This document shows positions 1,057 to 32,691 of a stretch of 48,451 nucleotides of DNA, piece after piece. The notes beneath the pieces were generated by a model that was given only the letters and a program-made list of their open reading frames with translations, did not search any database and was not told the origin of the DNA. The DNA lies in NCBI GenBank assembly GCA_035291325.1, contig DATDSK010000036.1, forward strand, positions 1 to 48,451. Reading direction: 5' to 3'. Every line of letters starts with the position of its first letter. The stretch's first letter is position 1. A program made the translations under genes and the position numbers. Source of the stretch: Bdellovibrionota bacterium (GTDB lineage Bacteria; Bdellovibrionota; UBA1018).

Positions 1057-1102
1057 GAAACCTCCCGAAATGAAGGGTGTTGTGATGCCCTACTCTTCGC
1101 AA

Positions 1103-1117
1103 AAATCCGGGGGATTT
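1103..1117 (-). terminator. Weak hairpin plus T-run downstream of lhgO (possible intrinsic terminator or attenuator before ugd)
   Basis: On the minus strand the sequence reads AAATCC-CCC-GGATTT followed by TTGCG, i.e. a 6-bp stem, 3-nt loop and a 5-T run counting the stem T's. It lies 23 nt after the lhgO stop. The stem is short and AT-rich. Confidence 0.3.
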
Positions 1118-1139
1118 GCCAGCAGTTTCGCCGTTGCCG

Positions 1140-3519: not shown

Positions 3520-3583
3520 AGAACCGAATATAGCAGGCGGAGGGCTCTTGGCAAGGATTGGGGTCTGCGATAGGTCTATTCTG
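3520..3583. promoter_or_regulatory. Short divergent intergenic region (GT4 leftward, methyltransferase rightward)
   Basis: Inferred only from the divergent gene starts at 3519 and 3584. I could not defend any specific -35/-10 call. Confidence 0.3.
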
Positions 3584-6859: not shown

Positions 6860-6913
6860 TGTCTTATCTTCCTAGTCGGGCTCCTCGGCCAGTCGAGGTA
6901 CCCGGATTTGTTT
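6860..6913. promoter_or_regulatory. Short divergent intergenic region (flippase leftward, methyltransferase rightward)
   Basis: Inferred from the divergent starts. It contains the small inverted repeat CCTCG-gccagt-CGAGG. Confidence 0.3.
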
Positions 6914-7546: not shown

Positions 7547-8455
7547 AGGTGCAAAGAGCCCGTGCCAAAAGGCCGGGATCAGGACGGCGATATTCGACCA
7601 CTTGCGATCGAGCGCGAGTCTGACGAGGCGTTTCGGCAAATGATAGGCTCCCATCCACGCCACTGCCGCCACGAGCTGAAGCAAAGACCCATTCCTTTTT
7701 ACGAACCAGAGCCGGTTCCGGACCATGAGATATTCCTTGAGCCGCGAAACCTTTCGCATCGAAGCGCCGCCCTCGTGAAAAATCCGAGCCTTCTTCACGA
7801 GTGCGAGCCCGAACCCCGCCCTCGCCGCGCGGACGCAGAAATCTGACTCTTCGTAATACGCGAAAAACGACTCGTCGAGCAGTCCGATTCGTTTCACCAC
7901 CTCGGTCCTGATCATAAAACAACAGCCGTGAATCATGCCGCATTTCACGAGTTCCGACTTGGGCTGCTCGAAAGAATAAGGTGTGCTTCCCGTCCAAAGC
8001 GAAATCGCTCCTTGCGCGATCCAGCCGGTCGGGGAATCACTTCCGGCCCGGATGAGCGGCCCCGCGATTCCCAATGAGGGGTCCCTTTCCATGGCCGCGA
8101 CAAGCTCTGCCAGGAACCCGGGCTCGGGTTCCGTGTCATCGTTCAAAAGAAGGAAATAATCGCAATCCCCTTGATCCAGCAAACGGCGCAAGCCGCGGTT
8201 CACGCCACCGGCAAAGCCGAGATTCCTTTCTTCTTCGAGAAGCTCGAGATTTTCTGCGGGCAGCCCGGACCAGGTTTTCTTAAGCTCTCTCAGCCCCACG
8301 CCAAGCTTTTCGCGACAATCAGCTGAGGAGCCGTTATCGACGACAAGAATTTTGCAGTTCGGGTAATCGAGTTTTTTCAACGAAAGCAGACAAGCAAGGA
8401 CTTGCCCGGGAGCGTTCCAGCTGAGAATGAGGATTCCGACCCGGGGCGCGTTCAT
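7475..8455 (-). CDS. Glycosyltransferase family 2 (GT-A)
   Basis: VGILILSWNAPGQVLACLLSLKKLDYPNCKILVVDNGSSAD...LLLNDDTEPEPGF (DxD-like). The track start at 8476 is TTG. The ATG at 8455 overlaps the upstream stop (ATGA). Confidence 0.8.
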   Translation of the reverse strand: MNAPRVGILILSWNAPGQVLACLLSLKKLDYPNCKILVVDNGSSADCREKLGVGLRELKKTWSGLPAENLELLEEERNLGFAGGVNRGLRRLLDQGDCDYFLLLNDDTEPEPGFLAELVAAMERDPSLGIAGPLIRAGSDSPTGWIAQGAISLWTGSTPYSFEQPKSELVKCGMIHGCCFMIRTEVVKRIGLLDESFFAYYEESDFCVRAARAGFGLALVKKARIFHEGGASMRKVSRLKEYLMVRNRLWFVKRNGSLLQLVAAVAWMGAYHLPKRLVRLALDRKWSNIAVLIPAFWHGLFAPSAGRCAELIRKLQVSRVPETTES

Positions 8456-9261
8456 GACTCGAGGTAAGCTTTCCAATCATGCCCGGAGGCGATTCCGGTC
8501 GACTCCAGATGGGTCGCGATCCCCGGAACCGGGACCCAGAGCTTGTATCGGGGCGAAACGAAATTTCTCAGGCCCCCGTGCTTCCAGGCGCGGGCGTAGA
8601 TCGTGAATTCGTCCCAGTTCTTCATGCTGGACACAAGTCTTCGCGGTGAAAATAACCCCATTTTGGTAAGCAGCAACCAGGTCGCCGCGTCCGTTGCGCC
8701 TTGCGCGAAATTAGAAAAAAAGGGCCAGGTCCGGTTGAGAACCGAACGCGTTGTCAGGAATGTAAGACAGGTCGAAGCCGCCGAGCGCCAGGACCGGCCT
8801 TCGAATTCTTGAGTCTCGCTCGGAACCTGGTGCATGGGATGGGAATAATAATCGGGGTGATCGTAAGGGGTTACGAAATCGACATCCCTGCCCTTCCGGA
8901 TGAAATTCACGAGCTGCTGGAACTCTCCCGGCGCATAGCCGTAATCATCTTCGGCGAAATAGACGAGTTCAGCGTCTTCCTGCTCAAGAAGAATTTTTCC
9001 TTGAAGCTGAAAGGTCGAAGCGTTGCCGATTTTATCGGTGTTCACGAAGATAAGCTTCCCGGCGGGATGATGTTTCTCGAATGCCGCCCGGTATTCAGAC
9101 GGGCAACCGTCAAGGATGACCCAGATCTTGGCGTCCAAGCCGGTCAGGCTTCGCGTGAAACTTCGAAACGCGGCTTCGGCAAGCAGAAGCTTATTGTCCT
9201 GATGAAGAATCGGGGTCTTCGAAACCCCCGGGTAAACCCGGTAAGCGATGGCTAAGTCCAT
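8452..9261 (-). CDS. Putative GT-A fold glycosyltransferase
   Basis: 269 aa. It starts [14 protein letters not shown] and carries an acidic FAEDDYGY (DxD-like) motif. The family assignment is by loose resemblance only. Confidence 0.45.
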   Translation of the reverse strand: MDLAIAYRVYPGVSKTPILHQDNKLLLAEAAFRSFTRSLTGLDAKIWVILDGCPSEYRAAFEKHHPAGKLIFVNTDKIGNASTFQLQGKILLEQEDAELVYFAEDDYGYAPGEFQQLVNFIRKGRDVDFVTPYDHPDYYSHPMHQVPSETQEFEGRSWRSAASTCLTFLTTRSVLNRTWPFFSNFAQGATDAATWLLLTKMGLFSPRRLVSSMKNWDEFTIYARAWKHGGLRNFVSPRYKLWVPVPGIATHLESTGIASGHDWKAYLES

Positions 9262-10610
9262 GACTGCATCTTATCCCTGTCCATAAACACCCAAGCAAAC
9301 AAAAAGAACGCCAAAATCATCGCATGATTCAGGACGAACCACGGATGATCGGCGAGCCCCATCACCAGGGTCGCGCAAATCCCGCCGATGAGCGCTGAAG
9401 CAGCCAAGGACCGAACTCGCCAAGTCTGTACGAGTGCGATGAGCCAGAGCGCCAGATGAAAAAGCCCCCAAAGCCAGCCGCGGGCTTTGAATTGCTCCAA
9501 GATGAGGCTGTGCGTGTGGGAGGGGTCGATAATTCCACGTTTTTCGTATTCTTCCTTGGGTGTGCACGCGTGGCCGAGTGGATGCTTCGCGACTTCGGAG
9601 AGGTTGAGTTCATAAAGACGCTTGCGTTGCAGCACCGAGGCATGCGCCGCAGTCGGGGCGCCTCCGGGCGCTGGCCCCACTCCCTCCAGCTTGGCGGAAC
9701 TGGAAAAGAGTGGCGAAACTCTTTTCGAGATCAGGTCCTTGGGTGAGATCAGCAGCACGCCAGCCAAAATACTCGCAAAAACCGCGATGGCGACCGCGAG
9801 GACCCGCTTTCGCCTGGAAATCCACCAGAGATGTCCGAAGAAAGCGAACCAGCCGGCCAACATTCCAATGAAAGGGCCACGCTGCGTCGTCCAGAGGGAA
9901 AGAACAGTTGATAAAATAGCGAAAGGGAAGAACCCGAACGCGATTCGTACGCGCTGCTCGGGCCATCGCTGCCAGAGCGCAAACCCCAGGACCCAAGGGA
10001 GCCACATGAGCAGCTTTCCGAGTGAGGCGACATCATAAAAACCCATGAGGAATTGGAGATCACCACGAGGGGGAATTTTGCGCAGCGGGTCGAAAAGGTG
10101 CGTATTCACCCAGGTCAGCACCTCGGGAGAAATGAAATTGAGAAGAACCGAGCCGTAGACAATGCCTGTCCAACCGATCAGGACCGCAAACAGCCCACGC
10201 TTTCCACACAGGAAAACACTCATCACGGCCGCAACTCCGAGCACCAGAACGGCCCATTCCCGCACGAGCGCAGGCGGAACCGGATTGCACCCAAGTCCGC
10301 CTGTGATTGTCCCGAGAGTTCCGAGCACAAGCCCCGTCAAAAGGACCGTCCTCAGGCGGACGGGCAAATCGGCCCAGCGGGACCACAGCCAGATAAAAAT
10401 GAGAGGGCTCGCCAATTTAAGAGGATTAATCGGCCCGGCATAGCGACCGAGAAATGGCCATTCCGCGTAAAGGGACTGCGAAAGAGCCGTGAATGAGGGG
10501 AACATGCCGAGGATGGCGGTGGCGAGGAGGAGGGGTCTTACCTCACTGAACTTTTGGAGCATTGTCCATTTCGACTCACTAGTGCCCGATTGTGGCAGAC
10601 CGGTATTCAT
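9252..10610 (-). CDS. O-antigen polymerase / ligase-like (Wzy_C-type) polytopic membrane protein
   Basis: 452 aa with about 10-12 hydrophobic segments and a large loop after [15 protein letters not shown]. It sits among glycosyltransferases. Confidence 0.6.
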
Positions 10611-11697
10611 TGCACGCCTCTATGACGGAACTCACCTCTTTTTCAGTCATCGTCGGGTCCATGGGCAAACTCAAAACGGTCCGATGAATTTCTTCAGTAA
10701 TGGGGAAATTCGACAATCTCAATTCTGAATAAGCGTTTTGGTGATGGGGTGGAATGGGGTAATGAATCAAGCTTCCGATGCCTCGAGCGGCAAGATGCTT
10801 CTGAAGACTCTCTCTGTCGGCGGTGCGGACAACAAATAAATGCCAGACGTGGCCATAGCGTTCCGGGCACCCCGGAAGCGTGATCACGGGATTCCGGATC
10901 TCCTTAAGATACCGGTCAGCAATGCTCCTTCTGATCTCATTTTCTGCATCCAGGCAACGAAGCTTTTCGACGAGAATCGCGGCCTGAAGTTCGTCCAGGC
11001 GACTATTCACACCTTTTAGTTCATTTACGTATTTCTGACGTGAACCATAGTTCCGTAAACATCTGACGGTATCGGCGAGAGTGTCATCGTTCGTGGTAAC
11101 AGCCCCTCCATCCCCCAGCGCCCCCAGGTTCTTGCCCGGATAAAAACTGAACCCTGCCGCGTCCCCAAGAGAGCCGATGCGCTGGCCCTGATAGAGTGCG
11201 CCGTGAGCCTGCGCACAATCTTCAAGAACGAACAACGAATGCTCTTTTTTCAACCGGACCAGAGCCGGGCTGAACGCGGCCTGTCCATAAAGATGAACAA
11301 CCAGAACCCCCTTTGTCCGGCTGGAAAGCCTTTCTTCAATTTTCGAAAAATCAAGATTATACGTTTTCGGATCCGGCTCAACGAGAACTGGGACAAGCCG
11401 ATTTGCGGAGATGGCGAGAATGCTCGCGATATAGGTATTCGCGGGAACGATGACCTCATCACCTTCTTTGATCCGGCCCAGTTCCATGTAGCCCCGTAGG
11501 GCGAGGACCAACGCATCAAGACCATTCGCGACGCCCAAAACGTGCTTGACCCCGCAATATGCCGCGAACTGCTTCTCGAAGCCCTCGAGTTCTTTACCGA
11601 GGATGTACCAACCCGAATCAAGAACACGTTCCATGGCCTTCAGAACAGCCGTCCGATGATTGGCATTCACCCTGCGTAGATTCAAAAAATCAATCAA
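10579..11697 (-). CDS. DegT/DnrJ/EryC1-family PLP sugar aminotransferase, FdtB/QdtB-like (dTDP-3-keto-6-deoxyhexose 3-aminotransferase)
   Basis: [49 protein letters not shown]...GLDALVLAL...CAQAHGA...[19 protein letters not shown] start overlaps the upstream TGA (TTGA), and no in-frame ATG preserves the conserved N-terminus. It lies directly downstream of the FdtC-FdtA fusion. Confidence 0.8.
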
Positions 11698-12714: not shown

Positions 12715-13749
12715 CTAATGCGATCCGACATTCCGGGTTAATTTTAAGAGTTCCTCTTTCAAGGTCGTGCTCCAAATTAACGCCGCCTGCTTTGTCGGGT
12801 GCGCCGAATCGTAGAAATGGCTATTTTCGTTTAAATCTCTGAGGTCCATGTAACGAACCCTCGGATTCGTGAATAGCGGCTTTATTAGCTCGCTCTTCAA
12901 GCTCTCGTAGCTCTTCAAATACAAAGATGCACTCTGATGCCACTTCGGAATGGGGAGATCCAAGATAACGAGCTTCCCGCCATTCTTCTCAACGAGCTGC
13001 GCCAACTCAATGACCGCGTCGAACTGCTCTCTTCCGAGAGAGCCGTCGGGTGATCCCATGTACTCTCGCCAAAAAGCGAACGCCCTCTTCTTAAACTCGT
13101 CATCAACGGAACCCGAATACGGTATTCGTATCTGAATCCCTGACGCCAATACAAATAACCGGCGAAGCAAGGTATACGGGCCAAAAAGGCTCAGATAATG
13201 TAGGCGCAAATCCTGTACCCGGGTCGAAACCGGTAAGATCTGATGATCTTTAAATTCGTAACCACCGTATCGTTTCAGCTCAACCTGAATATCAGTTTGC
13301 TTGCCTGGACCCCAGCGCTTCGCATTTTCTACGAAATTGCCAAACCATATGCCCACAACAAGAGTCGTGTGTTTCCGCTCGTCAGAACTAAGTACCTCGT
13401 ACGTTAATTCCACGATCTGCCGAATCTGGGTGATGTTGGACGCGCCGACCGCAAGATTGTGCACCGAATATTCCGGCAAGGCAGGTTCTATGAGTTCCGG
13501 GCGAAAACCCTCTCGAACGTTCGATGAACCTAAAAGAACAATCTTCTTTCCGCCTGATTTCCTGATCAAATCACGACCCATGACTACGGCGACCGGCTCC
13601 GGGGCAAAAACGTTGTCCGTCAACTCGGTATCGAGACGATTCATTCTACTAACATGAATAGCCAAAGCCCCGGAAAAAACAATATGGATCGCCGCGAACG
13701 AAATCAGTACCCAAGCCAACTTTTCAAAAATGCGCCTGAGATTTTGCAT
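12715..13749 (-). CDS. Membrane-anchored DltD/SGNH-like acyl-transfer or esterase protein (MBOAT partner)
   Basis: It has an N-terminal TM ([21 protein letters not shown]), a candidate nucleophile block [15 protein letters not shown] and a C-terminal FYDSAHPT (D-x-x-H block). The ATG at 13749 shares one base with the MBOAT stop (TGATG). The track start at 13860 lies inside the MBOAT gene. Confidence 0.55.
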
Positions 13750-15203
13750 CAAAACGCCTTGTAAACAAACTCGACTGATCGTTTTCCCAAAACCAGTACT
13801 GTGACCAAAGCAAATAGCATCGAGCCAAGATAGAAATGCGCGAATCCCGGCGAAAAACAAAACGCCTGGACCGGCGCAAGCACCCGTTCACGCAAAGCAG
13901 TACTCAGGTACCGGCTGGCGGCGACAATTACTCCCGCCAGAAATGTCAGGAGCAGAAACGCCCCGATCACGCACAGAACACCCATAACGCTCAGAACCCT
14001 TGAGTACAGCTCGTCCGTACCCCAGACACAGACTAGAGCGATGCTAAAATAAGCAAAAGTTCCCCCTGTGCATAGGGCTTTATAATAATCATTTGCGCAA
14101 ATACGTTTGTAAAAAGTCTTACGCATCCTGGCCTGCATGTAATTCTGATAAAGCTTGTTTACGGCAACACCAATACCGAGAAATAAGCCATAAAACAGAA
14201 AGACCCCGGTACTTCCATGCCATAAACCCATCAAAACGAAAGTCACGAAAAACGCAATCACGCCCAATGAGGACCTCGCGGCAGCTCGCGGCGTCAAGTC
14301 TGTAAGCTTTCTTAACAACGGGTTGAACAAATAAGTTCGGAACCAATCCGAAAGCGTGATATGCCACCGCGACCAAAAATCCAAAAAATTAGAAGCCGCG
14401 AAAGGCGCATTGAAATTCTCCGGCAGCCTGAATCCCGCCAGGGTTCCAAACCCAACCACGACATCCATATATCCTCTGAAGTTGATATAAAGAAAAAGGG
14501 TGTAACTCGCGGACGCGAGAGCGAACGAAATCACCCAGGCGGGAGAACCCAAGGGAATACCAAGAGCTAAATTCGCAATATTTTGCGAATGGGAAAAAGG
14601 CATTTTCTGGATTAGGCTGCAGATAACAAGTAACTCCAGATAACCCATCAGAATACGGCCGAACGCTGTCAAAACTTCCTTGTCAGTCAATTCAAGCCGT
14701 CCTAGCCCGTCATCCTGCTTCGCGTAATCCTGATATCGCTGAATGGGGCCCGACAGGAAAGTCAGGAAAAGGCACATGTAATTGAAATATCGAATAATGG
14801 TAATCCGCTCATTTATCGCGCCTTGGGACACGTCCACCAAGAGATGAATCAACCTGAACAAGAAATACGAGAGGCCCACAACGGTGTACTCGGTCGGAAT
14901 CTGTGGAACCCGGTCAAGAATGGAATATTTTTTGAGAAAGACGAAAAAGAGAATCGTAGACACAAGTTGAAATGTGATCACAACACCGCGCGGCCTGCGC
15001 TGCGAAACCCAAACAAGCAGATACCCGTAGGTTAGAAACAGAAAGATGGCAATTCCGTGTGAAAACAACGGCAGAAAGGAAAGTATAAAAACCAGATTCA
15101 CCGCCGCTAGCGAAAAACCCTTCTGCCATTCCCGATTAGAAAGATTCAACAGGATAATGGCCCCGAAGACAAGCAAAAGGAAATCAAACGACGCAATTGC
15201 CAT
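13749..15203 (-). CDS. Membrane-bound O-acyltransferase (MBOAT; DltB/AlgI/PatA family)
   Basis: Polytopic, with the family signature FWSRWHITLSDWFRTYLFNPL and a later WHG. The track start at 15224 is TTG. The ATG at 15203 lies 1 nt after the ACP stop. Confidence 0.85.
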   Translation of the reverse strand: MAIASFDFLLLVFGAIILLNLSNREWQKGFSLAAVNLVFILSFLPLFSHGIAIFLFLTYGYLLVWVSQRRPRGVVITFQLVSTILFFVFLKKYSILDRVPQIPTEYTVVGLSYFLFRLIHLLVDVSQGAINERITIIRYFNYMCLFLTFLSGPIQRYQDYAKQDDGLGRLELTDKEVLTAFGRILMGYLELLVICSLIQKMPFSHSQNIANLALGIPLGSPAWVISFALASASYTLFLYINFRGYMDVVVGFGTLAGFRLPENFNAPFAASNFLDFWSRWHITLSDWFRTYLFNPLLRKLTDLTPRAAARSSLGVIAFFVTFVLMGLWHGSTGVFLFYGLFLGIGVAVNKLYQNYMQARMRKTFYKRICANDYYKALCTGGTFAYFSIALVCVWGTDELYSRVLSVMGVLCVIGAFLLLTFLAGVIVAASRYLSTALRERVLAPVQAFCFSPGFAHFYLGSMLFALVTVLVLGKRSVEFVYKAF

Positions 15204-15204
15204 T

Positions 15205-15456
15205 TTACTTCGTTGCGCGTTCAACCAGAATGTCGATCATCGCACCAACATCTTGAAGCCTTCCAACCTCCGCGGCGTTCAGCCTGAGCCCGAATTCTTT
15301 TTCGATCGTGACGACCAGGGAAATATGCATGATGGAATCCCAGCCATCGATATCAGCGGCCGTCGTCCTTTCGGACAAATTAATTGCGAAGTCGTCAAAA
15401 ACTTCGATAAAAATCTGATTTAGCCTTTGAAGAATGTGCTTCCTATCTCGATTCAT
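15205..15456 (-). CDS. Acyl/peptidyl carrier protein (DltC-like size and position)
   Basis: 83 aa. The phosphopantetheine-site motif is ADIDGWDSIMHISLVVTIEKEFG (DS Ser followed by helix II). It lies directly upstream of the MBOAT. Confidence 0.8.
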   Translation of the reverse strand: MNRDRKHILQRLNQIFIEVFDDFAINLSERTTAADIDGWDSIMHISLVVTIEKEFGLRLNAAEVGRLQDVGAMIDILVERATK

Positions 15457-15487
15457 TTTCGTTCTCCAATTCTGTTTGCCCCAAAAC

Positions 15488-17356
15488 TCAATACACCGGA
15501 ATCTGGCGGATAGAGGTATCCCGCATTTTGAGATCAGGACTCAGAGTTAAGACCCATCTCGTCGAAGAGGGCGACTGATCCAGCATCGAATAACCCAGCC
15601 TCTCGTAAAGCCCCGCGACAAGAGTGTTCTTCTTAGTCGGAACAAATACGCCAATGATGCGTTCCGCACCGAGATTTTTTGCGGACAAAATAATTTCGTT
15701 ATTCACGAATTCTTCCATTCCCCGGGACAACACACGGCAACTCATGACCCAGGTATCGACTAGGACGTCAACGCCGCTTTTGCGCAAAATCACGACAGAT
15801 ATCAGGCCATTGTCGCCGAACCGATCTCGCATTTTAAAGAAGCGGCAGACGACATTCGGGTCTTTTGAAAGCGCTTGGATATCAGCTTCAGAGTATCGAT
15901 TTCCGGTAAGATGAAATTGATTGCTCTTATTAATGAGTTGGGCCATGCGCGGGAGATTCAGCTGATCGACGTGACCAACACAAGCTTCCATTTCTAAGCT
16001 TTCGAGGAATTCAGATATATTTGAGAACTTCGTTTGGAAAGCTTTCCGCTCAGCATTATCTCGATACATCTGATTTCGTGCGCCATCCTCCTGAGAGAAG
16101 GTCACCGTTTCAAAGAGCAGTTCTCGATCCAAAGCACGAATATAAAGGGCGGGATCTTCGGGCAATTCGGGAACAGTCACCTCGGGAACCATTCGCCGGA
16201 CCAGGTCTCGTTCAACAGGATTATCATCCACGAAAACGAACGAATCCAACCCGAGTTCCAGAACTTGCGCAATATGCCTGATATTGTCAGCCTTGTTATC
16301 CCAATTAGCCCTGAAGACGGCAATATCATCCAGCCTCAACACCATATCGGGATGATTTTGAAACGGCAATCTTGCGGCATCCGGCTCGTTCTTCGAACAG
16401 ACGGCGAGCACGATCCCTCGGTTTTTCAGCTGCTTCAGATATCGCTGAAAAGCAACGAAAGCTTCGCCATCAGCGCCCGTCCCCAGACGTATCCCGCTGA
16501 CGCCGTCATCACCAATAACACCGCCCCAAAGGGTGTTATCCAAATCCAAAACAAGAACTTTTTTGGAGGCCCCCTTGATCGCCTGAATCAGCCGAGCCCC
16601 GGAAAACGCGACATGCCCAATCGCGTCGAACGAAAAAGCGTGTTTTGAATGATACCAATAGCGTTCGTCAAACCATCTGTTCTTTCCGTAAATTGCTGAA
16701 GCAAACTCCAGGTCAAAAACGGAAACCCCCGAAACCAAAGATCTTGCGAGACAGAGATTATATTCGCGCAAAGCATTCGCCCTGCTCCAAAGCACCGAAC
16801 TTTCGTAGTTTCCGAAGCTCCGCGAAAGAGGCAGATCAGCATTATTTTGAATAATAAATGCTGATGAATTGCGCTTCAGTGCATCCCAGATCGCAACTGA
16901 AGCCTCCACGGCCTGATCGATCTCTCTCCTGATACCGTCAATTGAAGTACCCGACGAAATCTCCAATCTTACATCCCTGTGATTCGTAAAAAGCCAGACC
17001 ACGGCGGGGTTAAAGGCATACAAATCGCTACACGGATCTAAAACCGTCTGATGGAGAGTGTCATAAGCCCCAACAAAAAATTGGCCCCTATACCCATTGA
17101 GAGCCAACCAGAAACAAAAAACATCGACGAATTGATCCACAGTGCTTGTAGGCAAAATCGCAATCGAGATCGGACGCAAATTAAGGTGTTCAGCATCGAT
17201 CGAGCGATAGACCTTCGCAAGCCGCTGCTGAACCGGAAATTCGAGCCCGGGGTCCGCCAGAGTCCGAAGTTTCGCGAATGCCTCGCGATGCCTGGACTCC
17301 TTCAGCAAACGTTGAACTTCTTTCAACCCCGATTTGAATTCTTCGCTTCCAATCAT
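15488..17356 (-). CDS. FkbH-like protein (HAD-superfamily subfamily IIIC phosphatase domain plus C-terminal acyltransferase-like domain)
   Basis: The central block reads KKVLVLDLDNTLWGGVIGDDGVSGIRLG...GIVLAVCSKNEPDAA...ANWDNKADNIRHIAQVLELGLDSFVFVDDNPVERD, which is the HAD-IIIC/FkbH signature. The C-terminal part (WVMSCRVLSRGMEEF) is typical of the family. The ATG overlaps the radical SAM stop (ATGA). Confidence 0.8.
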   Translation of the reverse strand: MIGSEEFKSGLKEVQRLLKESRHREAFAKLRTLADPGLEFPVQQRLAKVYRSIDAEHLNLRPISIAILPTSTVDQFVDVFCFWLALNGYRGQFFVGAYDTLHQTVLDPCSDLYAFNPAVVWLFTNHRDVRLEISSGTSIDGIRREIDQAVEASVAIWDALKRNSSAFIIQNNADLPLSRSFGNYESSVLWSRANALREYNLCLARSLVSGVSVFDLEFASAIYGKNRWFDERYWYHSKHAFSFDAIGHVAFSGARLIQAIKGASKKVLVLDLDNTLWGGVIGDDGVSGIRLGTGADGEAFVAFQRYLKQLKNRGIVLAVCSKNEPDAARLPFQNHPDMVLRLDDIAVFRANWDNKADNIRHIAQVLELGLDSFVFVDDNPVERDLVRRMVPEVTVPELPEDPALYIRALDRELLFETVTFSQEDGARNQMYRDNAERKAFQTKFSNISEFLESLEMEACVGHVDQLNLPRMAQLINKSNQFHLTGNRYSEADIQALSKDPNVVCRFFKMRDRFGDNGLISVVILRKSGVDVLVDTWVMSCRVLSRGMEEFVNNEIILSAKNLGAERIIGVFVPTKKNTLVAGLYERLGYSMLDQSPSSTRWVLTLSPDLKMRDTSIRQIPVY

Positions 17357-18984
17357 GCCGTCCCCCCCACGCCGTTTAACTTTGTAGCAAGGTTCCGAAA
17401 CCCGGTATGGTTGTCATCGAAAGCCCCCTGGATCTGCGATAACATGATACCGTTCAAATTGCGCTGAATCTCACTGATGTCCGCGAACGAAAAGCCCTGA
17501 TCCAGCATATACGCCAAAAACCAAAGGCTGGTGTCAGGATCAATAAAAACGCTGTTCTTAATTTCACTAAAAGCCGCGATCTTATGTTCGTAAGCACGCC
17601 TTGAGTCCATCGTGCGATGACTCCATTTGTTCCCCGCCCCGGCGAGACCAAATGCGTCCCGCTGTTCGTGAACAGGCGTGTTTTCGGAATAATAAAATTC
17701 CTTAAGAGAATAGAACTCAACTCCCGTGGAGTTAACAAAATCAATGTTAGATAAAACCGTCTCGTCCGTTTCACCTGGAAATCCCAACACGAAAGCGGCG
17801 AGCGACACGATACCATTATTCCTGAGGTGCCCAACTCCCCGGCGAAACGCGTCCCCGTTGGCGCGTTTATTCATGCTCTTCAGAACGGAATCGTTGGCCG
17901 ACTCGATTCCAAGATAAACGCAGCTACAACCAGAATCCTTCATCAAAGCGGCTGTCTCAGCATCGACATATTGAACACGCAAAAAAGAGGACCATTCAAA
18001 ATCGAACTTTGAAAGTAACCTGCAGATACTTCGAAAGCGCTCAGCCGGAACATTAAAAGTATCGTCCAAGAACACCAAACGACGCACGCCTGGAATTCTC
18101 GATATGCTTATCAGGTGTTTTTCGAGGACATCCAAGGACATCGTGTGCAAGCCCTTGCTTAATCGAGGGTAAGAGCAAAACGCACACGAGAAGGCGCACC
18201 CGGAAGCGCTCCTTAGCTGGAGCGTGGACCGGACAAAGGAGGTTAAATCGAGACGATCCCAATCGGCTGGCGCATCATCAAGCACGGGATCGTTCCAGCG
18301 GGTAACTGTTTTTTGAATTTGGGCGCTATCGTTTATCTTTTCACGGAAAAACAAATTATTCACTTCGGAAAGCGAGGCACCAGCATGCTTGCGAGCCAGA
18401 ACCAAATCGCGGAGGTCCGACTCGGAATTGAAGCTGTGAATGGCGTAATCGAGTCCCAATCTCAACATAGCCCGTTCCAAAGCCGCCGAATCATCCGACT
18501 TTACCTGTGCATTGACGAAAGCGCCGCCGATTACGATAGAAGCATCAGGGAACCGAGACTTGATTTTTTTGCTGATACGACCGACTTCCGAATAGTTCAG
18601 GTGAAACGTGCAGGATATGCCAATGAGCGGCGGCATGGAGGAGCGCTCATACATTTCGCAGAACAGATCCCACTCGGCGTCAAAATTATTAATGATGCCA
18701 GTTCCAATCCCGAACTGCCTCAAATAATTGGCAAGATGAACGCCTACAAAGCCCGGCAGGTTCCAGATATTTAAAAGCTCCCTCCTTTGGACAAAGTCGG
18801 CCTCATTCCAAAACACCCCTCGGCGAATCTTGTTCAGGACATCCAGATGCGAACGGAACCCGCCCTGGTAGTGGATCATCCTCGGATAAATCAGTTCAGA
18901 ACAAAGCGACAACCGGTCAAGCGGTATCTTAGAATACTCAGCATAGTTGACTACGTCAGACTGGGAAATGACGATCAAATCCAT
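17353..18984 (-). CDS. B12-binding-domain radical SAM enzyme (class B-like)
   Basis: 543 aa. The N-terminal ~200 aa are Rossmann-like (IGISCTFHLNYSEVGRISKKIKSRFPDASIVIGGAF). This is followed by RSASGCAFSCAFCSYP (CxxxCxxC), VFLDDTFN and YLGIESAND. Confidence 0.8.
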   Translation of the reverse strand: MDLIVISQSDVVNYAEYSKIPLDRLSLCSELIYPRMIHYQGGFRSHLDVLNKIRRGVFWNEADFVQRRELLNIWNLPGFVGVHLANYLRQFGIGTGIINNFDAEWDLFCEMYERSSMPPLIGISCTFHLNYSEVGRISKKIKSRFPDASIVIGGAFVNAQVKSDDSAALERAMLRLGLDYAIHSFNSESDLRDLVLARKHAGASLSEVNNLFFREKINDSAQIQKTVTRWNDPVLDDAPADWDRLDLTSFVRSTLQLRSASGCAFSCAFCSYPRLSKGLHTMSLDVLEKHLISISRIPGVRRLVFLDDTFNVPAERFRSICRLLSKFDFEWSSFLRVQYVDAETAALMKDSGCSCVYLGIESANDSVLKSMNKRANGDAFRRGVGHLRNNGIVSLAAFVLGFPGETDETVLSNIDFVNSTGVEFYSLKEFYYSENTPVHEQRDAFGLAGAGNKWSHRTMDSRRAYEHKIAAFSEIKNSVFIDPDTSLWFLAYMLDQGFSFADISEIQRNLNGIMLSQIQGAFDDNHTGFRNLATKLNGVGGTA

Positions 18985-19063: not shown

Positions 19064-19513
19064 TTAATCTTCTTTGGCCAATTCCTGCGTGAATGCAACG
19101 TGAGCTTTTCCAGCAACGAGCTGCAAACCTGTAGCGATATTCTCAATCGCAACCTTGAAGATGACCGTCCGGGTAGCTAACGAGATCTGATCGACGGCTC
19201 CAGTCACCCTGACCTCATCGCCGCCGTAGGTGGGGGCAGAAAACCGTAAATTCAGTGACAAGAGCAGCGCGTTCTGACCGGGAAGATGTACCCCGATCAA
19301 TCTTGAGATCAGTGCGGTCAAGAGAGCCCCATGGGCGACCCGTTTTGCAAATCCCCTTTTTCGGGCAAAGGCACTATCCACATGCAATGAACTGCAATCA
19401 CCCGAAAGAGCAGTGAACTGGTCGATCATATCCTCGGTTATGCGCTGCTCGAACGAAAAACCCGCCCCCTGCTTCATGTCCTCTATAGTCAACGTCGACA
19501 AGCCGCATCCCAT
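19064..19513 (-). CDS. MaoC-like (R)-specific enoyl-thioester hydratase/dehydratase, hotdog fold
   Basis: ALSGDCSSLHVDSAFARKRGFAKRVAHGALL matches the SGDxNPxHxD...HG hydratase motif. 149 aa. The ATG directly follows the upstream TAA. Confidence 0.7.
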   Translation of the reverse strand: MGCGLSTLTIEDMKQGAGFSFEQRITEDMIDQFTALSGDCSSLHVDSAFARKRGFAKRVAHGALLTALISRLIGVHLPGQNALLLSLNLRFSAPTYGGDEVRVTGAVDQISLATRTVIFKVAIENIATGLQLVAGKAHVAFTQELAKED

Positions 19514-20491
19514 TTAGAAATCCCTTGGAAAGTTGTGAGGGTACTTGGCTTTGAGTTCAGACGGCAAAAGAGCAGTTTCGAGGCCTTCAATTGCCGCTCG
19601 CCCCATCGTCAGTACGGCTTGTTCTGTACTTCCCCCCATATGGCAGCTGCCGAGAAAGGTTCCGCTAGAAAACAACGAACACACTCCTGGCGGCTCTTCG
19701 CTAAAAACATCAAGAGCGGCACCGGCCAAATGGCCTGTTTCCAACATACTCGAAAGGGCAGTTTCGTCGATCAACCCCCCTCGGGCCGCATTAACCAATA
19801 GCGCGCCTTTTTTCATAAGGGACAATTTCGAAGCACTCAGCAAGTTACGGGTCGACGAATCGAAAGGAAGATGAATAGTAACAATGTCAGAGCGTCTGAG
19901 TAGGTCATCCAATGAAACAGGAGTCACCCCATAAAGGGAGTAGAAATCAGAATAATCGACGATATCAAATGCGAGTAGACGACAGCCGAATTTCTCGAGC
20001 AGAAGAGCAACTTCTTTACCAACATGCCCGCAACCGACGATACCGACAGTCAAGTCGCTGAGCTGACGGCCTCGAAGCTGACCCCATTTCCCTTTAAGCA
20101 GTCCGCAATGTGCCTCCGGCACCCGATGCGATAGCATGATCATGAAACCAACGGCAAGCTCGGCCACTGACCGGCGGTTTACCCCAGGCATCCAACCGAG
20201 CTTTACGCGACGTTCTTCCAAAGCACGCAAGTCAATCATGTCGAGCCCGACACCATATTTCGAAATCAAGCGAAGCCCGGGCAGCTGCTCGAGAACATCC
20301 GCACGAATCTCCTCCAGTCCCGTGATCGCGCGATCGCATCCCTTAAGAAAATTCACCAGGTCAGCACCAGAAAGAGACTTACCTAGGTCGTTAAAGCGGA
20401 TATTCGAGTATCGCGCAAGCAACTCCGCTTTCAAAACGGGGTGTTGGGAAAACGACCGTGACGCAACTCCGATTCTGATGTTGTCGCTCAT
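19514..20491 (-). CDS. D-isomer-specific 2-hydroxyacid dehydrogenase (SerA/GhrA-like), NAD-binding
   Basis: GIVGCGHVGKEVALLLEKFGCRLLAFD, NAARGGLIDETAL and CHMGGST. The track start at 20527 is GTG. The ATG at 20491 has GGAGGG 9 nt upstream and overlaps the upstream stop (ATGA). Confidence 0.8.
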   Translation of the reverse strand: MSDNIRIGVASRSFSQHPVLKAELLARYSNIRFNDLGKSLSGADLVNFLKGCDRAITGLEEIRADVLEQLPGLRLISKYGVGLDMIDLRALEERRVKLGWMPGVNRRSVAELAVGFMIMLSHRVPEAHCGLLKGKWGQLRGRQLSDLTVGIVGCGHVGKEVALLLEKFGCRLLAFDIVDYSDFYSLYGVTPVSLDDLLRRSDIVTIHLPFDSSTRNLLSASKLSLMKKGALLVNAARGGLIDETALSSMLETGHLAGAALDVFSEEPPGVCSLFSSGTFLGSCHMGGSTEQAVLTMGRAAIEGLETALLPSELKAKYPHNFPRDF

Positions 20492-21570
20492 TTTTTCAGG
20501 CCCTCCAGGTACTCGGTACAAGCACACTGAAACGCTTTATCCGGCTTGAGCCATTTCTTTTCAAATTTCCAACCACCAACCGGGATAATGACCCCAAGCC
20601 CCTGTTCGCTGTTTTTCTTATCGCTGCCGATTCCTGAAAGAAATTTCTCGGGGCAGATCGCCACATCTTTACTCATTTTGTAATTCTCGAATAATGTCGC
20701 GTGGCATTTGTCAAAAACGCGGCCCTTCTCAAACCCCAGACGAGCAGAAACCCAGTTCGCCATGTCCATGCCCATCGAAACGGCCACGCCATGTGGAATG
20801 GCAAATCCGGAGGAGCTCTCAATGGCATGTCCAAAACTATGACCGTAGTTCAAAAGGTTTCTTTGTCCCGTATCAAACTCATCCGCTTCGATGTAACTCT
20901 TCTTTAAGTTCAGGGACAACAGGATGAATCGCTGTAATAAAGGTCCTGAAGCAGTCAAAGCCTTGTAAGATGCCGCGATTTTTTCGAATTCTGACTCACC
21001 CTCGAGCGCGCAGATCTTAAGGATTTCGCCGAGACCGCTCCGGATCTCAGCTTCCTCGAGGGTCTTGAGAAACATCGGGTTAATGACGACCTCGGTCGGC
21101 GGATAATAACCGCCGACGATGTTCTTTATGCCACCAAAATTGATGGAGCTCTTCGATCCAATACAGGAATCTGCCTGCGCGAGCAGGGTTGTCGGATAAT
21201 AATTCCACTCAATACCTCTCATCAGAATGGAAGAAACAAAACAGGAAATATCCTGAATCACCCCGCCGCCGATGGAGAGTATCCTGTTCCCTCTCTTGAT
21301 GCGTTTTTCTAGTAGCTTCGCGACGTAATTAACGCAATTCTGAAGGGTTTTATTCCCCTCGTTTGCTTGAATGATAAGTACCGAATCATTTTCGAGAGTT
21401 TTCTTGAGCTGATCTCGATAAATTTCGGCAACTTTGGAATCGATGATAACGTGAAATCGTATTTTCCCCTGAAAAACCGACTCGGGGCTTTCATCCTGGT
21501 CAATTCTCACCCGGTAATCACCGCGATAAGACCTTACGAGAAATTGCTCAGACACGAGAAAATCCGCCAT
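20488..21570 (-). CDS. 3-dehydroquinate-synthase-like enzyme (sugar phosphate cyclase superfamily)
   Basis: ILSIGGGVIQDISCFV, YPTTLLAQADSCIGSKSSINF, RSGLGEILK and LLNYGHSFGHAIE (the DHQS LNxGHTxGHAxE metal motif), plus IPHGVAVSMGM. Confidence 0.75.
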   Translation of the reverse strand: MADFLVSEQFLVRSYRGDYRVRIDQDESPESVFQGKIRFHVIIDSKVAEIYRDQLKKTLENDSVLIIQANEGNKTLQNCVNYVAKLLEKRIKRGNRILSIGGGVIQDISCFVSSILMRGIEWNYYPTTLLAQADSCIGSKSSINFGGIKNIVGGYYPPTEVVINPMFLKTLEEAEIRSGLGEILKICALEGESEFEKIAASYKALTASGPLLQRFILLSLNLKKSYIEADEFDTGQRNLLNYGHSFGHAIESSSGFAIPHGVAVSMGMDMANWVSARLGFEKGRVFDKCHATLFENYKMSKDVAICPEKFLSGIGSDKKNSEQGLGVIIPVGGWKFEKKWLKPDKAFQCACTEYLEGLKK

Positions 21571-22333
21571 CAATCGCTACGCACTGCCCAGTTAGAAACG
21601 AGTTCTGTTCGCTCACCAACCAGGCAACAAGCTCCGCGATCTCCTCCGGTTTGGCGAGTCGACGAGACGGCACACCGGCTACCATTGTTTTAATCCCAGC
21701 GTCGCCGAGAACCCTTCGCGTAAGCTCCGTATCCACGAATCCAGGAGCCACGGTGTTCGCCAGAATACCGAACTGCGCGTATTCTGCAGAAAGCGCGACA
21801 GTCATGCCGTCGAGGCCGAACTTACTCGCGGAATAGGCCGCGCGGCGCTCCTTGCTGATTTTGCCGAAAATGGATCCTACGTTCACAATGCGACCCCAGC
21901 CACGTTCGCGCATGCCGGGCAGGACGGCCTTACACAGCTCAAATGGACCCATGAGATTGACCCGCAGGACGCGTTCAAAGTCATCACTGGGCAAAGACTC
22001 AAAAGACTCGACCCGATTAATCCCGGCATTGTTGACCAGAATGTCTATTTTCAAATCGAGGATTCCGGTCAAGAAGGCGGCAACTGAGCCTTTATCTAAA
22101 AAATCGAGTTGTAAATAACGCGTGACGGGACAGCCGTCGGCTTGCGCCGCGGTGCCGGTTGCAATCACCTCGGCCCCCCTGTCCATCAGCTCGCGGGCTA
22201 TGGCCAACCCGATCCCCCGAGTCGCTCCCGTTACAAGTGCTACACGCCCCACTAATTGACGTTCGTTTTTATGTGCTTGCACGTTTATTCGATTTTCCAG
22301 CTGGTTTAAGTGCTCGGAATATAGTGTGGCCAT
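21548..22333 (-). CDS. Short-chain dehydrogenase/reductase (FabG-like ketoreductase)
   Basis: GRVALVTGATRGIGLAIA, NNAGI and YSASKFGLDGM (YxxxK). The track start at 22384 is TTG; the first ATG is at 22333. A GTG at 22282 is also possible. Confidence 0.8.
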   Translation of the reverse strand: MATLYSEHLNQLENRINVQAHKNERQLVGRVALVTGATRGIGLAIARELMDRGAEVIATGTAAQADGCPVTRYLQLDFLDKGSVAAFLTGILDLKIDILVNNAGINRVESFESLPSDDFERVLRVNLMGPFELCKAVLPGMRERGWGRIVNVGSIFGKISKERRAAYSASKFGLDGMTVALSAEYAQFGILANTVAPGFVDTELTRRVLGDAGIKTMVAGVPSRRLAKPEEIAELVAWLVSEQNSFLTGQCVAIDGGFSRV

Positions 22334-22409
22334 CCGGCTTTGTCTAGCGGGTTCTTCCCGAGTGATTCCTGGAATTGGCGGCAATAACTTGCTATTCAGT
22401 TATCGAGCA
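22334..22409. promoter_or_regulatory. Divergent intergenic region: start of the ~15 kb minus-strand operon and of wzx
   Basis: Inferred from the divergent starts at 22333 (minus) and 22410 (plus). No confident -35/-10 hexamers. Confidence 0.35.
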
Positions 22410-23900
22410 ATGAAATCGAGCCAGTCGCTTACGAATAAAGTGAAGGAAGCCGGAAAGCACGCCCTGATCTATGGGTTTGGATCGGTTCTGCAATCCATGA
22501 TCGGCTTTGTATTCATCCCGCTGTATACGAAATACTACACGCCCGAGATCTACGGAACTTTTTCAATTCTGACAATTTGTGGAACTCTGGCCGCGACATT
22601 ATTCGGATTGGGTGCCCCATCCTCGCTGTCCCGATCCTATTTTGATTATTCAGCAGAAGAAGAGCGCGCGAAGGTTGCGAGCACCTCTTTGGCAATCGGC
22701 GCGGCGGGGTTTTGTTTATTGCTCCTGACCGGGATTTTCGCCTCACAACAGCTCTCGAATTCACTGTTTTCAACTGATCAATACTCAATTCACCTCCTTT
22801 TTACGATGACATCGTCTGGAATCGGAGTCCTCAATAACGTACTGAATGTACTCCTTCGTTTCAGAAGAAGATCAGTCGCGGTCATCTCGATCGGAGTTTC
22901 TTCCCTCCTGACTCAGTCCATTCTGATCTTTCTATTGCTCGTACATTTCAAATTAGGGATACTTGCGCCCATTCTCGGCGGCCTTATTGGCCAGTTTCTA
23001 CAGTTCACGCTACTTACGGTTGTCGCTTATCGATATCTTTCCCCTAGGCTTCTCAATTCGGAACTTCCAGTCCAACTGAAATTCGGAGCACAATCGGTTC
23101 TTGTCGGGCTCGGGATGTATTCGCTGGATTGGATCAACCGCTTTCTAATGAAATCTTATTGCTCCCTGCACGACGTAGGCGTTTATACGCTCGCCTACCA
23201 GATTGGGTCGATTATCAATCTCGGAATGATCCTCCCATTCTCGTTCATCTGGGCACCCATGCGAATGGAGTACATCAAGGACAATGACTCCCCTGTCTTG
23301 TTCCGCCTGATCACAAGCTATTATTTTTTTGCGGGTTACGGGATCATCTTGCTCGTTTCACTCTTCAGTCACGACCTTCTAGCACTGATCGTGCAACGAG
23401 ACGACTTCATGGAGTCCTACAAGCTGATCCCGTTCGTGATGATTGCCCTTCTCATCTATGGAAGCATTAACATCGTCGACATAGGGGTTTATTACGCACG
23501 CAAACAAGCCTATGTCATTCTAATCTTTTTTGGCACCGCCGCATTGAACGCGCTGCTCGCGAAGCTGCTCTTCCCTACTTGGGGATATCTTTCGGCAGGA
23601 CTCCTTCTCGTGTTTTCAAACGGGCTCATGGCGTTCGCTGTTGCCTGCATGTCGAACCGTTACCACCGGCTGTCATTTGAATGGAAACGTCTGGCCGGGC
23701 AAACGGCGCTTTTAGCAATAGCTCTTTCCACTCTCTTTTTCGAACTTCCGTCGGGGAAAACAGGTTTGTGGGTCAAATCTACAGCGGCATTCGGATATTT
23801 TTTCGCTTCGTATGTCTTTATTCTTTCGAACAAGGAAAAGCAGAAGCTCTATGGGCTAAAAAATTTTTTCAGAAATGCTGATCAACAAACGCCAAATTAG
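22410..23900 (+). CDS. wzx: Wzx-type polysaccharide flippase (MOP/PST family)
   Basis: About 496 aa with 12-14 TM segments. The N-terminus KHALIYGFGSVLQSMIGFVFIPLYTKYYTPEIYG is typical of polysaccharide biosynthesis (PST) proteins. The start is trimmed to the ATG at 22410. Confidence 0.75.
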   Translation: MKSSQSLTNKVKEAGKHALIYGFGSVLQSMIGFVFIPLYTKYYTPEIYGTFSILTICGTLAATLFGLGAPSSLSRSYFDYSAEEERAKVASTSLAIGAAGFCLLLLTGIFASQQLSNSLFSTDQYSIHLLFTMTSSGIGVLNNVLNVLLRFRRRSVAVISIGVSSLLTQSILIFLLLVHFKLGILAPILGGLIGQFLQFTLLTVVAYRYLSPRLLNSELPVQLKFGAQSVLVGLGMYSLDWINRFLMKSYCSLHDVGVYTLAYQIGSIINLGMILPFSFIWAPMRMEYIKDNDSPVLFRLITSYYFFAGYGIILLVSLFSHDLLALIVQRDDFMESYKLIPFVMIALLIYGSINIVDIGVYYARKQAYVILIFFGTAALNALLAKLLFPTWGYLSAGLLLVFSNGLMAFAVACMSNRYHRLSFEWKRLAGQTALLAIALSTLFFELPSGKTGLWVKSTAAFGYFFASYVFILSNKEKQKLYGLKNFFRNADQQTPN

Positions 23901-31640: not shown

Positions 31641-31642
31641 AG

Positions 31643-32683: not shown

Positions 32684-32691
32684 GGAAATTT

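Follow-up and report, generated by a model that had tools for sequence, protein, structure and literature searches.

A candidate carrier-protein-fed MBOAT–SGNH acylation module in a bacterial surface polysaccharide locus

In dltABCD systems, DltA loads D-alanine on the carrier protein DltC, and DltB and DltD pass it to an extracytoplasmic polymer. FkbH enzymes convert 1,3-bisphosphoglycerate to a glyceryl thioester on an acyl carrier protein (ACP), glyceryl-S-ACP. In a glycan locus of a Bdellovibrionota bacterium (contig DATDSK010000036.1; the whole 48,451-nt stretch that was analysed is here called the window), a gene for an FkbH-type protein stands directly before genes for a small ACP, an MBOAT and a membrane-anchored protein. 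This arrangement raises the question of whether the four genes form one pathway and, if so, which acyl group it delivers and where. Here, we report an analysis of this locus by profile searches, structure prediction and comparison across genomes. We propose, with moderate confidence, that a six-gene module attaches a small hydroxy- or oxo-acyl group, derived from glycerate, in ester linkage to the Wzx/Wzy surface polysaccharide of the locus, using the ACP as the cytoplasmic donor; the exact acyl group is proposed with much less confidence than the overall flow. All of the functional claims draw on sequence, structure prediction and synteny.

Gene layout at the locus

The translated open reading frames (ORFs) place four genes on the minus strand at 12715–17356, in the order FkbH-type protein, ACP, MBOAT and SGNH protein. 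The FkbH-type ORF (15488–17356) encodes 622 amino acids including VLDLDNTLWGG, and the ACP ORF (15205–15456) 83 amino acids including IDGWDSIMH. The MBOAT ORF (13749–15203) encodes 484 amino acids, counted from the ATG chosen by the gene callers, with the motif SRWHITLSDWFRTYLFNPL / RWHITLSDWFRTYLFNPL, and the fourth ORF (12715–13749) 344 amino acids with LLGSSNV and FYDSAHP. The junctions were read directly: 31 nt containing a Shine–Dalgarno-like GGAGAA box separate the FkbH stop from the ACP ATG, the ACP TAA is followed after a single nucleotide by the MBOAT ATG, and the MBOAT stop and the start of the fourth gene overlap as TGATG. A first-pass annotation had described just such a near-seamless run, and its coordinates, motifs and junctions all read as claimed; the same four genes were called independently on four metagenome contigs with an identical locus. 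At the upstream end, the stop of a radical-SAM gene overlaps the FkbH start by 4 nt. The functional unit probably comprises six genes, MaoC, radical-SAM, FkbH, ACP, MBOAT and SGNH, running from 19513 down to 12715 on the minus strand. A promoter and terminator scan of 10–23 kb found sites no commoner than in shuffled sequence, and the operon limits are not defined by it.

No adenylating (AMP-binding) enzyme was found by profile among the 48 window ORFs scanned, which were the 83-residue ACP and, of the ORFs with 110 amino acids or more, those judged to be plausible genes; the first-pass annotation had likewise seen none in the window. Nor did profile scans of the window find ketosynthase (KS), acyltransferase (AT), condensation (C) or adenylation (A) domains.

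Co-occurrence of the genes across phyla

We surveyed the gene set with the rare SGNH family as the anchor, taking one genome per species and searching the loci by phmmer on six-frame ORFs. The survey returned 69 loci, which is a lower bound: it used two peptide patterns, and the Telmatospirillum locus was found via the FkbH route only. The 69 loci span Bradyrhizobium, Rhizobacter, Rhodoferax, Steroidobacteraceae, Polyangiaceae, Magnetococcus, Chryseolinea, Hydrogenedentales and others. In 60 of them the four genes fit into about 6 kb, so the co-occurrence of FkbH, a small ACP, an MBOAT and a DltD-like gene that the first-pass annotation envisaged is found in 60 of 69 species genomes. The MBOAT gene is immediately upstream of the SGNH anchor in 67 loci, and the remaining two (L074 and L075) start at the anchor. 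Seven incomplete loci run into a contig end on the side in question (L011, L013, L029, L032, L034, L065 and L075), and L074 is a weak match (24%) on a short contig. Where the flanks permit judgement, the SGNH family occurs with FkbH and ACP in 60 of 62 loci.

The order of the genes varies. FkbH–ACP–MBOAT–SGNH is found in the window and in two other loci (L005 and L080), MBOAT–SGNH–ACP–...–FkbH in Burkholderiales, Polyangia and Steroidobacteraceae, and FkbH–MBOAT–SGNH–ACP in at least 20 Bradyrhizobium and other alphaproteobacterial genomes; in Telmatospirillum (L081) the four genes are split over two divergent operons. Bradyrhizobium sp. ORS 111 carries the MBOAT–SGNH pair between FkbH and ACP in an exopolysaccharide locus that has a separate AT3 acyltransferase, and no aminotransferase or N-acyltransferase lies within 10 kb. 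The four-gene arrangement is not a matter of chance. Because the genes are kept together through rearrangements and across phyla, at 30–40% protein identity, we regard them as functionally coupled, and this is the main evidence for the coupling.

The contexts inspected contain glycosyltransferases, Wzx/Wzy, Wza/Wzc, pyruvyl transferases and sugar-nucleotide genes, except for L080, where the module lies between YfhO-type genes. Cell-wall or lipid A genes adjoin the module in none of these contexts.

The predicted FkbH-type loader and its carrier protein

The FkbH-type protein (15488–17356, minus strand) is a predicted loader with a BF1531-like N-terminal domain, a HAD-IIIC phosphatase domain and a GNAT-fold C-terminal domain. 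It matches TIGR01686 (FkbH), a subfamily-domain model and not an equivalog, at 292.4 bits (cut-off 146.65) over model positions 3–320 of 323, TIGR01681 (HAD-IIIC) at 70.1 bits (cut-off 35.75), and also PF21211 (FkbH_N). The sole solved relative, Bacteroides fragilis BF1531 (PDB 3slr), covers residues 55–422 with E = 5.6e-72 by sequence and 5e-31 by fold, and carries the label 'uncharacterized'. In the AlphaFold model (pLDDT 85.6), the C-terminal third adopts a GNAT fold and matches GNATs. HAD motifs I–IV (D271-L-D273-N-T275, S321-K322, K355 and D377-D378) are invariant in alignment A2, and in 63 module-linked homologues of 36–58% identity these residues and M538-S-C540-R-V show 95% conservation or more. 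Cys540 of M-S-C-R-V is invariant and, according to the alignment and the model, sits at the end of GNAT strand β4, which in the GNAT fold is the pantetheine-binding place. In OzmB, an active-site cysteine of the C-terminal domain reportedly carries the (phospho)glyceryl thioester. The FkbH/HAD-IIIC identity given in the first-pass annotation is borne out by both models and the HAD catalytic motifs, and Cys540 is a candidate for the catalytic cysteine. On the strength of family membership and the conserved residues, the protein is predicted to load a glyceryl unit on the ACP, and since the HAD phosphatase site is intact, a phosphorylated acyl substrate is favoured. The three-domain family of roughly 620 amino acids is very large, with at least 7,999 homologues at E ≤ 1e-10.

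The candidate carrier (15205–15456, minus strand) was first recognized by its DGWDS sequence. It passes PF00550 (PP-binding) marginally, matches PDB 2lml (a putative ACP) with E = 3e-13, and hits eight NCBIfam ACP models, every one under its cut-off; the hits in the NCBIfam scan are to generic ACP models, with no match to a DltC-specific one. Across 73 homologues encoded at module loci, conservation of D35, W39, D40, S41 and H44 is 95% or higher. By its sequence, the 83-residue protein is a dedicated ACP, with Ser41 of DGWDS (codon 15334–15336) as the predicted phosphopantetheine site.

An MBOAT with a fused shuttle motif

The MBOAT (13749–15203, minus strand) has about 11 hydrophobic segments and two predicted catalytic histidines, His329 (WHG) and His281 (RWH). 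Its family identity, as first annotated, is confirmed by PF03062 (54.9 bits, cut-off 27). The only relatives in the PDB are DltB structures (8jem and 6bug, E ~8e-27), which align to about residue 385; His329 aligns with the conserved DltB histidine, His281 is kept as well, and the two show 95% conservation or more among 68 module MBOATs. Past the DltB-aligned core lie two additional hydrophobic helices (409–427 and 454–472), and the C terminus reads ...VEFVYKAF-stop, a feature that the first-pass annotation did not remark on. The last six codons (13752–13769) encode FVYKAF, an FXYXXF motif with Tyr481 at codon 13761–13763, and F-[VI]-Y-[KR]-[AGT]-F forms the C-terminal end in 67 of the 68 module MBOATs.

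The tyrosine of the FXYXXF motif takes the acyl group from the MBOAT and hands it to the serine of the SGNH partner, as shown for DltX and PatA (PMC12148441). In Dlt, this shuttle motif is on a separate microprotein, DltX, and DltB moves the acyl group from the carrier protein to the tyrosine and on to the SGNH serine; in PatA/AlgI-type proteins the motif is fused C-terminally through two extra transmembrane helices, and PatA auto-acylates it (PMC12148441). The present system lacks DltX, its shuttle motif being part of the MBOAT itself, on two extra transmembrane helices. We considered and rejected the MBOAT as a DltB orthologue: it scores 181.2 bits against the TIGR04091 DltB equivalog, under the 375-bit cut-off, and its shuttle motif is fused. 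Judged by its sequence, the MBOAT is built like the PatA/AlgI type and not like DltB, and the system as a whole is a hybrid, with a carrier protein as in Dlt and a fused shuttle as in PatA.

A rare SGNH protein

At E ≤ 0.01 the fourth protein (12715–13749, minus strand) has no match in Pfam or NCBIfam, nor has it one among PDB sequences; a few of its homologues show PF13472. In an alignment of 19 metagenomic homologues (A1), G74-x-S76-N77, N105 and D314-x-x-H317 are invariant and correspond to SGNH blocks I, III and V; S76, N105, D314 and H317 are also invariant in 73 locus homologues. An AlphaFold2 model (pLDDT 84) gave Foldseek top matches that are all SGNH proteins, namely esterases, DltD (7dxm and 6pfx, TMq 0.46–0.47) and PatB (7trr). 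One transmembrane segment is predicted at residues 7–25, consistent with the membrane anchor originally noted, and the positive residues R5, R6 and K10 at its N-terminal side predict a periplasmic location of the catalytic domain. The protein is a putative SGNH acyltransferase in the role of DltD or PatB, with Ser76 (block I), Asp314 and His317 (block V) as the predicted triad and Asn105 in block III. Only the homologue alignment and the structure model brought this triad to light. Membership of the DltD family was rejected, given that no DltD model matches and DltD is one among many SGNH fold matches. The family is rare, with 491 representatives among 1.84 billion in a full profile search and 23 matches in a word-indexed one.

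Proposed tailoring enzymes and the nature of the acyl group

Thioester-tailoring genes are present in all 60 of the 60 complete modules. The enzyme is a VOC/Glyoxalase_4 protein in 36 modules, a VOC protein with a TylF-type O-methyltransferase in 1, a MaoC dehydratase with an SDR in 21, and a MaoC protein with a cobalamin radical-SAM methylase, the type found in the window, in 2. VOC/Glyoxalase_4 genes adjoin the ACP in 37 of the 60 modules (for example, L018 11014–12380 and L033 11439–11882). Since none of the modules is limited to the four genes, the delivered acyl group is probably not the unmodified FkbH product; the final group is probably a modified glycerate, plain glyceryl being unlikely. 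The first-pass annotation had treated the four genes as a Dlt-like core, and in this respect it needs revision, because every complete module carries tailoring genes, here MaoC and radical-SAM, extending the unit to 19513. Its central inference, an MBOAT system with a carrier protein and an FkbH-type loader that would deliver a glycerate-derived acyl group to the locus polysaccharide, is supported: it agrees with the tests that were run, and none of the findings that the annotation had named as refuting came up. The refinement is that plain glyceryl is unlikely as the final group (the annotation had allowed for 'lactyl or similar').

In the window, the MaoC-like (R)-hydratase/dehydratase (19064–19513, minus strand; 149 amino acids; PF01575 MaoC_dehydratas, 62 bits) is proposed to tailor the ACP-bound glyceryl unit. 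The 543-residue product of 17353–18984 (minus strand) is a candidate cobalamin-dependent (class B) radical-SAM methyltransferase that may C-methylate the acyl-ACP: it matches PF04055 (Radical_SAM) at 70.2 bits and TIGR04479 (PhpK-family) over its full length at 384 bits, under the 600-bit subfamily cut-off, its PF02310 (B12-binding) score of 29.4 bits falls under the 32.1 cut-off, and its translation contains CAFSCAFC, that is, CxxxCxxC. The run MaoC–radical-SAM–FkbH–ACP recurs in Candidatus Abyssobacteria (L080) and Telmatospirillum (L081). MaoC adjoins the radical-SAM, FkbH and ACP genes in the window, L079, L080 and L081 and lies at most 7 kb from the module in L010 and L070; the radical-SAM gene is directly upstream of FkbH in L079, L080 and L081, is also found in L010 and L070, and is cut by a contig end in L005. 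Magnetococcus (L010) and L070 carry MaoC and radical-SAM in other gene orders, and a homologous MaoC lies inside the 21 modules of the MaoC and SDR type.

Next to MaoC, and abutting it, is a gene for a D-isomer 2-hydroxyacid dehydrogenase (19514–20527, minus strand; PF02826 and PF00389). It is possibly a window-specific reductase of a 2-oxoacyl intermediate, and its membership of the module is doubtful. Together with an SDR and a 3-dehydroquinate-synthase-like gene it forms a trio at 19514–22384 (minus strand). We rejected this trio as a conserved part of the module: in L005 it lies elsewhere, next to hexapeptide–FdtA–DegT genes, and locus searches did not detect it in L010, L070, L080 or L081. 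It probably belongs to a separate sugar or side-group pathway.

What the tailoring sets would do can be suggested from their families. VOC and TylF genes point to on-carrier epimerization or O-methylation of a hydroxy-acyl unit, and a TylF-type O-methyltransferase inside one module implies an acyl unit with a free hydroxyl. The VOC protein could epimerize the glyceryl thioester at C2; PF13669 is the family of methylmalonyl-CoA epimerase. The MaoC and SDR pair might dehydrate 2,3-dihydroxypropanoyl-ACP to enol-pyruvoyl- or pyruvoyl-ACP and reduce this to lactyl-ACP; a DH–KR–FkbH loading module of BryA (bryostatin) has reportedly been proposed to give D-lactate. MaoC with radical-SAM might combine dehydration with C-methylation, giving, for example, a 2-oxobutyryl unit.

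Proposed pathway

In the pathway that we propose, the FkbH-type enzyme would transfer a phosphoglyceryl unit from 1,3-bisphosphoglycerate to Cys540 of its GNAT-fold domain, the HAD domain would take off the phosphate, and the glyceryl unit would pass to phosphopantetheine at Ser41 of the ACP. MaoC and the B12 radical-SAM protein would then tailor the ACP-bound unit, as their conserved synteny suggests; their chemistry is a guess, the most plausible course being dehydration to enol-pyruvoyl- or pyruvoyl-ACP and C-methylation, for instance to 2-oxobutyryl, perhaps with later reduction. In sister modules this second step would fall to the VOC/glyoxalase-type enzyme, a possible α-carbon epimerase, or to MaoC and an SDR reductase, with lactyl-ACP as the predicted product. 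By analogy with DltB/DltX and PatA, the MBOAT would take the acyl group from the ACP thioester via a membrane tunnel, and His329 would catalyse its transfer to the protein's own Tyr481 in FVYKAF, on the periplasmic side. Ser76 of the SGNH protein, as in DltD and PatB, would accept the group from Tyr481 and pass it to a hydroxyl of a polymer sugar. The loading, MBOAT and SGNH steps are proposed because they have family-level precedent in FkbH chemistry (PMC7489565, PMC13122637, PMC10099666) and in shuttle chemistry (PMC12148441).

It is, in our judgement, an evenly balanced proposition that these modules represent a phylogenetically broad, hitherto unrecognized class of machinery for acylating envelope polymers, in which a polyketide-style factory (FkbH and ACP with VOC, MaoC and SDR, or MaoC and B12 radical-SAM tailoring enzymes) feeds a PatA-type MBOAT/SGNH exporter to give glyceryl, lactyl or C-methylated 2-oxo- or 2-hydroxy-acyl esters of exopolysaccharides.

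Competing explanations

The strongest of the rival explanations, which we nevertheless hold to be unlikely, is that two independent systems travel together: the MaoC–radical-SAM–FkbH–ACP cassette would make an acyl-ACP for cytoplasmic use, for example to N-acylate the 3-amino sugar of the FdtA/hexapeptide and DegT genes, and the MBOAT–SGNH pair would be an ordinary acetyl-CoA-using O-acetyltransferase of the PatA/PatB or AlgI/AlgJ type. Several observations count against the single pathway that we propose, and some of them lend themselves to this division. The characterized MBOATs with a fused FXYXXF motif are acyl-CoA users without a carrier (PMC12148441), so this MBOAT could use acyl-CoA too. 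Each half also occurs by itself. L049 (8558–17451) is the sole intact locus with the MBOAT–SGNH pair but without ACP or FkbH within 10 kb, its neighbours being DUF1993, an MFS transporter and a 1096-aa BNR/sortilin-repeat protein; L079 has the MaoC–radical-SAM–FkbH–ACP cassette, with an FkbH 58% identical to that of the window, but no MBOAT–SGNH pair. In the place of the pair (9129–11527), L079 has proteins of 371 and 416 amino acids, which gave no Pfam or PDB match and may be an unknown acyl-ACP-dependent transferase, and then a DegT aminotransferase. The two halves are therefore separable. Beside the window module, too, there are two DegT aminotransferases and a hexapeptide acyltransferase domain, and the Campylobacter jejuni FkbH-domain gene cj1302 belongs to a flagellin-glycan locus with dimethylglyceric acid (PMC7099621). 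On the side of the parts, the ACP is barely over the PF00550 cut-off (21.0 bits against 20.8), the window contains no phosphopantetheinyl transferase, and the order and chemistry of the MaoC and radical-SAM steps are conjecture. That Cys540 is the catalytic cysteine of FkbH is our assumption, drawn from the OzmB work. Against the two-part explanation, the presence of FkbH and ACP with the SGNH family in 60 of 62 judgeable loci is unexpected for an independent acetylation pair, and in the FkbH–MBOAT–SGNH–ACP order of at least 20 Bradyrhizobium and other alphaproteobacterial genomes the two halves are interleaved. In Bradyrhizobium ORS 111, moreover, neither an aminotransferase nor a cytoplasmic N-acyltransferase is present within 10 kb, and the locus already has AT3 for acetylation.

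Two further explanations change one end of the proposed pathway. The module could work as described but serve another acceptor, such as peptidoglycan, a lipid head group, lipid A/core or a periplasmic glucan. The SGNH sequence does not reveal acceptor specificity, the family has no characterized member, and known MBOAT–SGNH pairs serve peptidoglycan, teichoic acid, alginate and cellulose (PMC12148441); yet the module is set among polysaccharide genes in every context inspected save L080 and never beside cell-wall or lipid A genes, and we judge a different acceptor to be improbable. We think it equally doubtful that the 622-residue protein is something other than a glyceryl-ACP synthase, that is, a phosphatase/GNAT protein that loads another unit (from an acyl-CoA or acyl phosphate) or acts on a phosphorylated sugar, in which case the delivered group would not be glycerate-derived. 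Such a role would suit the breadth of the subfamily-domain model TIGR01686, the size of a family whose glycan-locus members are uncharacterized, the 'uncharacterized' label of the nearest structure and the generic GNAT fold of the C-terminal domain. It is opposed by the full-length FkbH match at twice the cut-off, by the intact HAD phosphatase site, which speaks for a phosphorylated acyl substrate, and by the invariant cysteine, which fits a thioester intermediate. The tailoring enzymes (dehydratase with reductase, O-methyltransferase, VOC) likewise fit a 2,3-dihydroxyacyl thioester, and a Campylobacter strain whose cj1302 is only a pseudogene reportedly has no dimethylglyceric-acid glycan (PMC7099621).

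Surrounding glycan genes

The window holds two flippase-type genes, MurJ-like (5285–6859, minus strand) and Wzx-like Polysacc_synt (22326–23900, plus strand), and a Wzy-like polymerase gene (9252–10610, minus strand); two flippases with one polymerase may point to a composite locus or to a pair of glycan pathways. Two DegT aminotransferases and an FdtA/hexapeptide acyltransferase domain adjoin the module. A run at 29109–33315 (plus strand) encodes an HpcH/HpaI aldolase, a CTP_transf_3 cytidylyltransferase, a class I methyltransferase, a GFO/IDH/MocA oxidoreductase and a SIS isomerase, and looks like a pathway to an acidic sugar of the ulosonic type, activated with CMP; in L005, the cytidylyltransferase, methyltransferase, GFO and SIS genes directly adjoin the acylation module as well. 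A sulfotransferase-like gene (27879–28892, minus strand; PF13469/PF00685) within the polysaccharide locus suggests a sulfated glycan. The GC content is lower over the glycan locus (46–52% at 12000–46000) than at 1–10000 (55–58%), and a transposase-like helix-turn-helix ORF lies at 46217–46816; both are compatible with a horizontally acquired island.

Implications

In the literature library that could be searched, full-text searches found no description of a module of FkbH, ACP, MBOAT and SGNH, in keeping with the first-pass annotation, which knew of no characterized example. If our reading is correct, this would be the first carrier-protein-dependent MBOAT–SGNH pathway outside Dlt and the first case of FkbH chemistry serving extracytoplasmic glycan decoration. 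A 2025 mechanistic account places the carrier protein in Dlt only and has all other MBOAT–SGNH pairs taking acyl-CoA (PMC12148441). The module would break this rule, and would show that a carrier protein can feed the MBOAT tunnel despite a fused tyrosine shuttle. It would also provide a candidate genetic basis for non-acetyl esters, such as glycerate, lactate and their relatives, on exopolysaccharides. To our knowledge, the biosynthetic genes for these esters are largely unassigned. Such substituents strongly influence gelling, charge, and immune or phage recognition. The module is present in culturable strains of Bradyrhizobium, Rhizobacter, Rhodoferax and Telmatospirillum: the VOC type is represented by Bradyrhizobium sp. 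ORS 111, the MaoC and SDR type by Rhizobacter sp. Root1221 and Rhodoferax sp. U11-2br, and the MaoC and radical-SAM type by Telmatospirillum siberiense. The interchangeability of the three tailoring sets hints at a natural toolkit with which designed acyl groups could be placed on polysaccharides.

Comparison with known systems

A glycan-directed use of FkbH chemistry would have a partial parallel in C. jejuni, where the FkbH-domain gene cj1302 is part of the locus for a flagellin glycan with dimethylglyceric-acid pseudaminic acid (PMC7099621). As in the present modules, an FkbH-domain protein sits in a glycan locus, and the strain comparison ties it to a glyceric-acid-derived acyl group, a link that is correlative. 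In C. jejuni, however, the modification belongs to a cytoplasmic nucleotide-sugar or flagellin pathway, with no MBOAT–SGNH export step reported.

The cytoplasmic half of the module resembles the FkbH/ACP glyceryl-ACP pathways of polyketide synthases (PKS) and nonribosomal peptide synthetases (NRPS), represented by FkbH–FkbJ of FK520, OzmB, the 'glycerate utilisation' operons of tetronates, and the FkbH domains of suomilide and vioprolide. In both, FkbH is paired with a stand-alone ACP, followed by on-carrier tailoring such as oxidation, O-methylation or dehydration and reduction (PMC7489565, PMC13122637, PMC10099666). They differ in the fate of the acyl-ACP, which in our proposal would be used by a membrane MBOAT and not by a PKS, an NRPS or a FabH-like enzyme. 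The MaoC and SDR variant of the module mirrors the DH–KR–FkbH logic reportedly proposed for BryA.

The membrane half is closest in build to PatA/PatB, AlgI/AlgJ/AlgX and WssH-type systems, with which it shares an MBOAT of about 480 residues, a C-terminally fused FXYXXF motif and a separate, transmembrane-anchored periplasmic SGNH partner; PatB is among the SGNH fold matches. Those systems are described as carrier-free users of acetyl-CoA (PMC12148441), whereas here an ACP and a loader are co-inherited in 60 of 69 genomes, with tailoring enzymes in 60 of the 60 complete modules.

With Dlt, the module shares a dedicated small carrier protein encoded beside an MBOAT and a transmembrane-anchored SGNH protein. 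Among solved structures, only those of DltB are related to the MBOAT, both conserved histidines are kept and an FXYXXF tyrosine shuttle is present, and the logic would be the same, from thioester to tyrosine ester to serine ester to polymer. The first-pass annotation had concluded that the architecture of carrier, MBOAT and DltD was kept and the loader swapped; comparative genomics upholds the carrier and the FkbH loader, but the MBOAT is PatA-like and the SGNH protein matches no DltD model. The loader here is an FkbH-type HAD/GNAT protein in place of the adenylating DltA, and the acyl group would be a tailored C3 or C4 hydroxy- or oxo-acid in place of D-alanine. There is no DltX, and the ACP, MBOAT and SGNH proteins fail the DltC, DltB and DltD models. 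The hosts are diderm bacteria, in which the predicted target is a Wzx/Wzy polysaccharide, whereas Dlt serves teichoic acids. Failing membership of DltB, DltC and DltD alike, the module should therefore not be filed as a dlt operon: it combines a carrier protein of the Dlt kind with a shuttle of the PatA kind.

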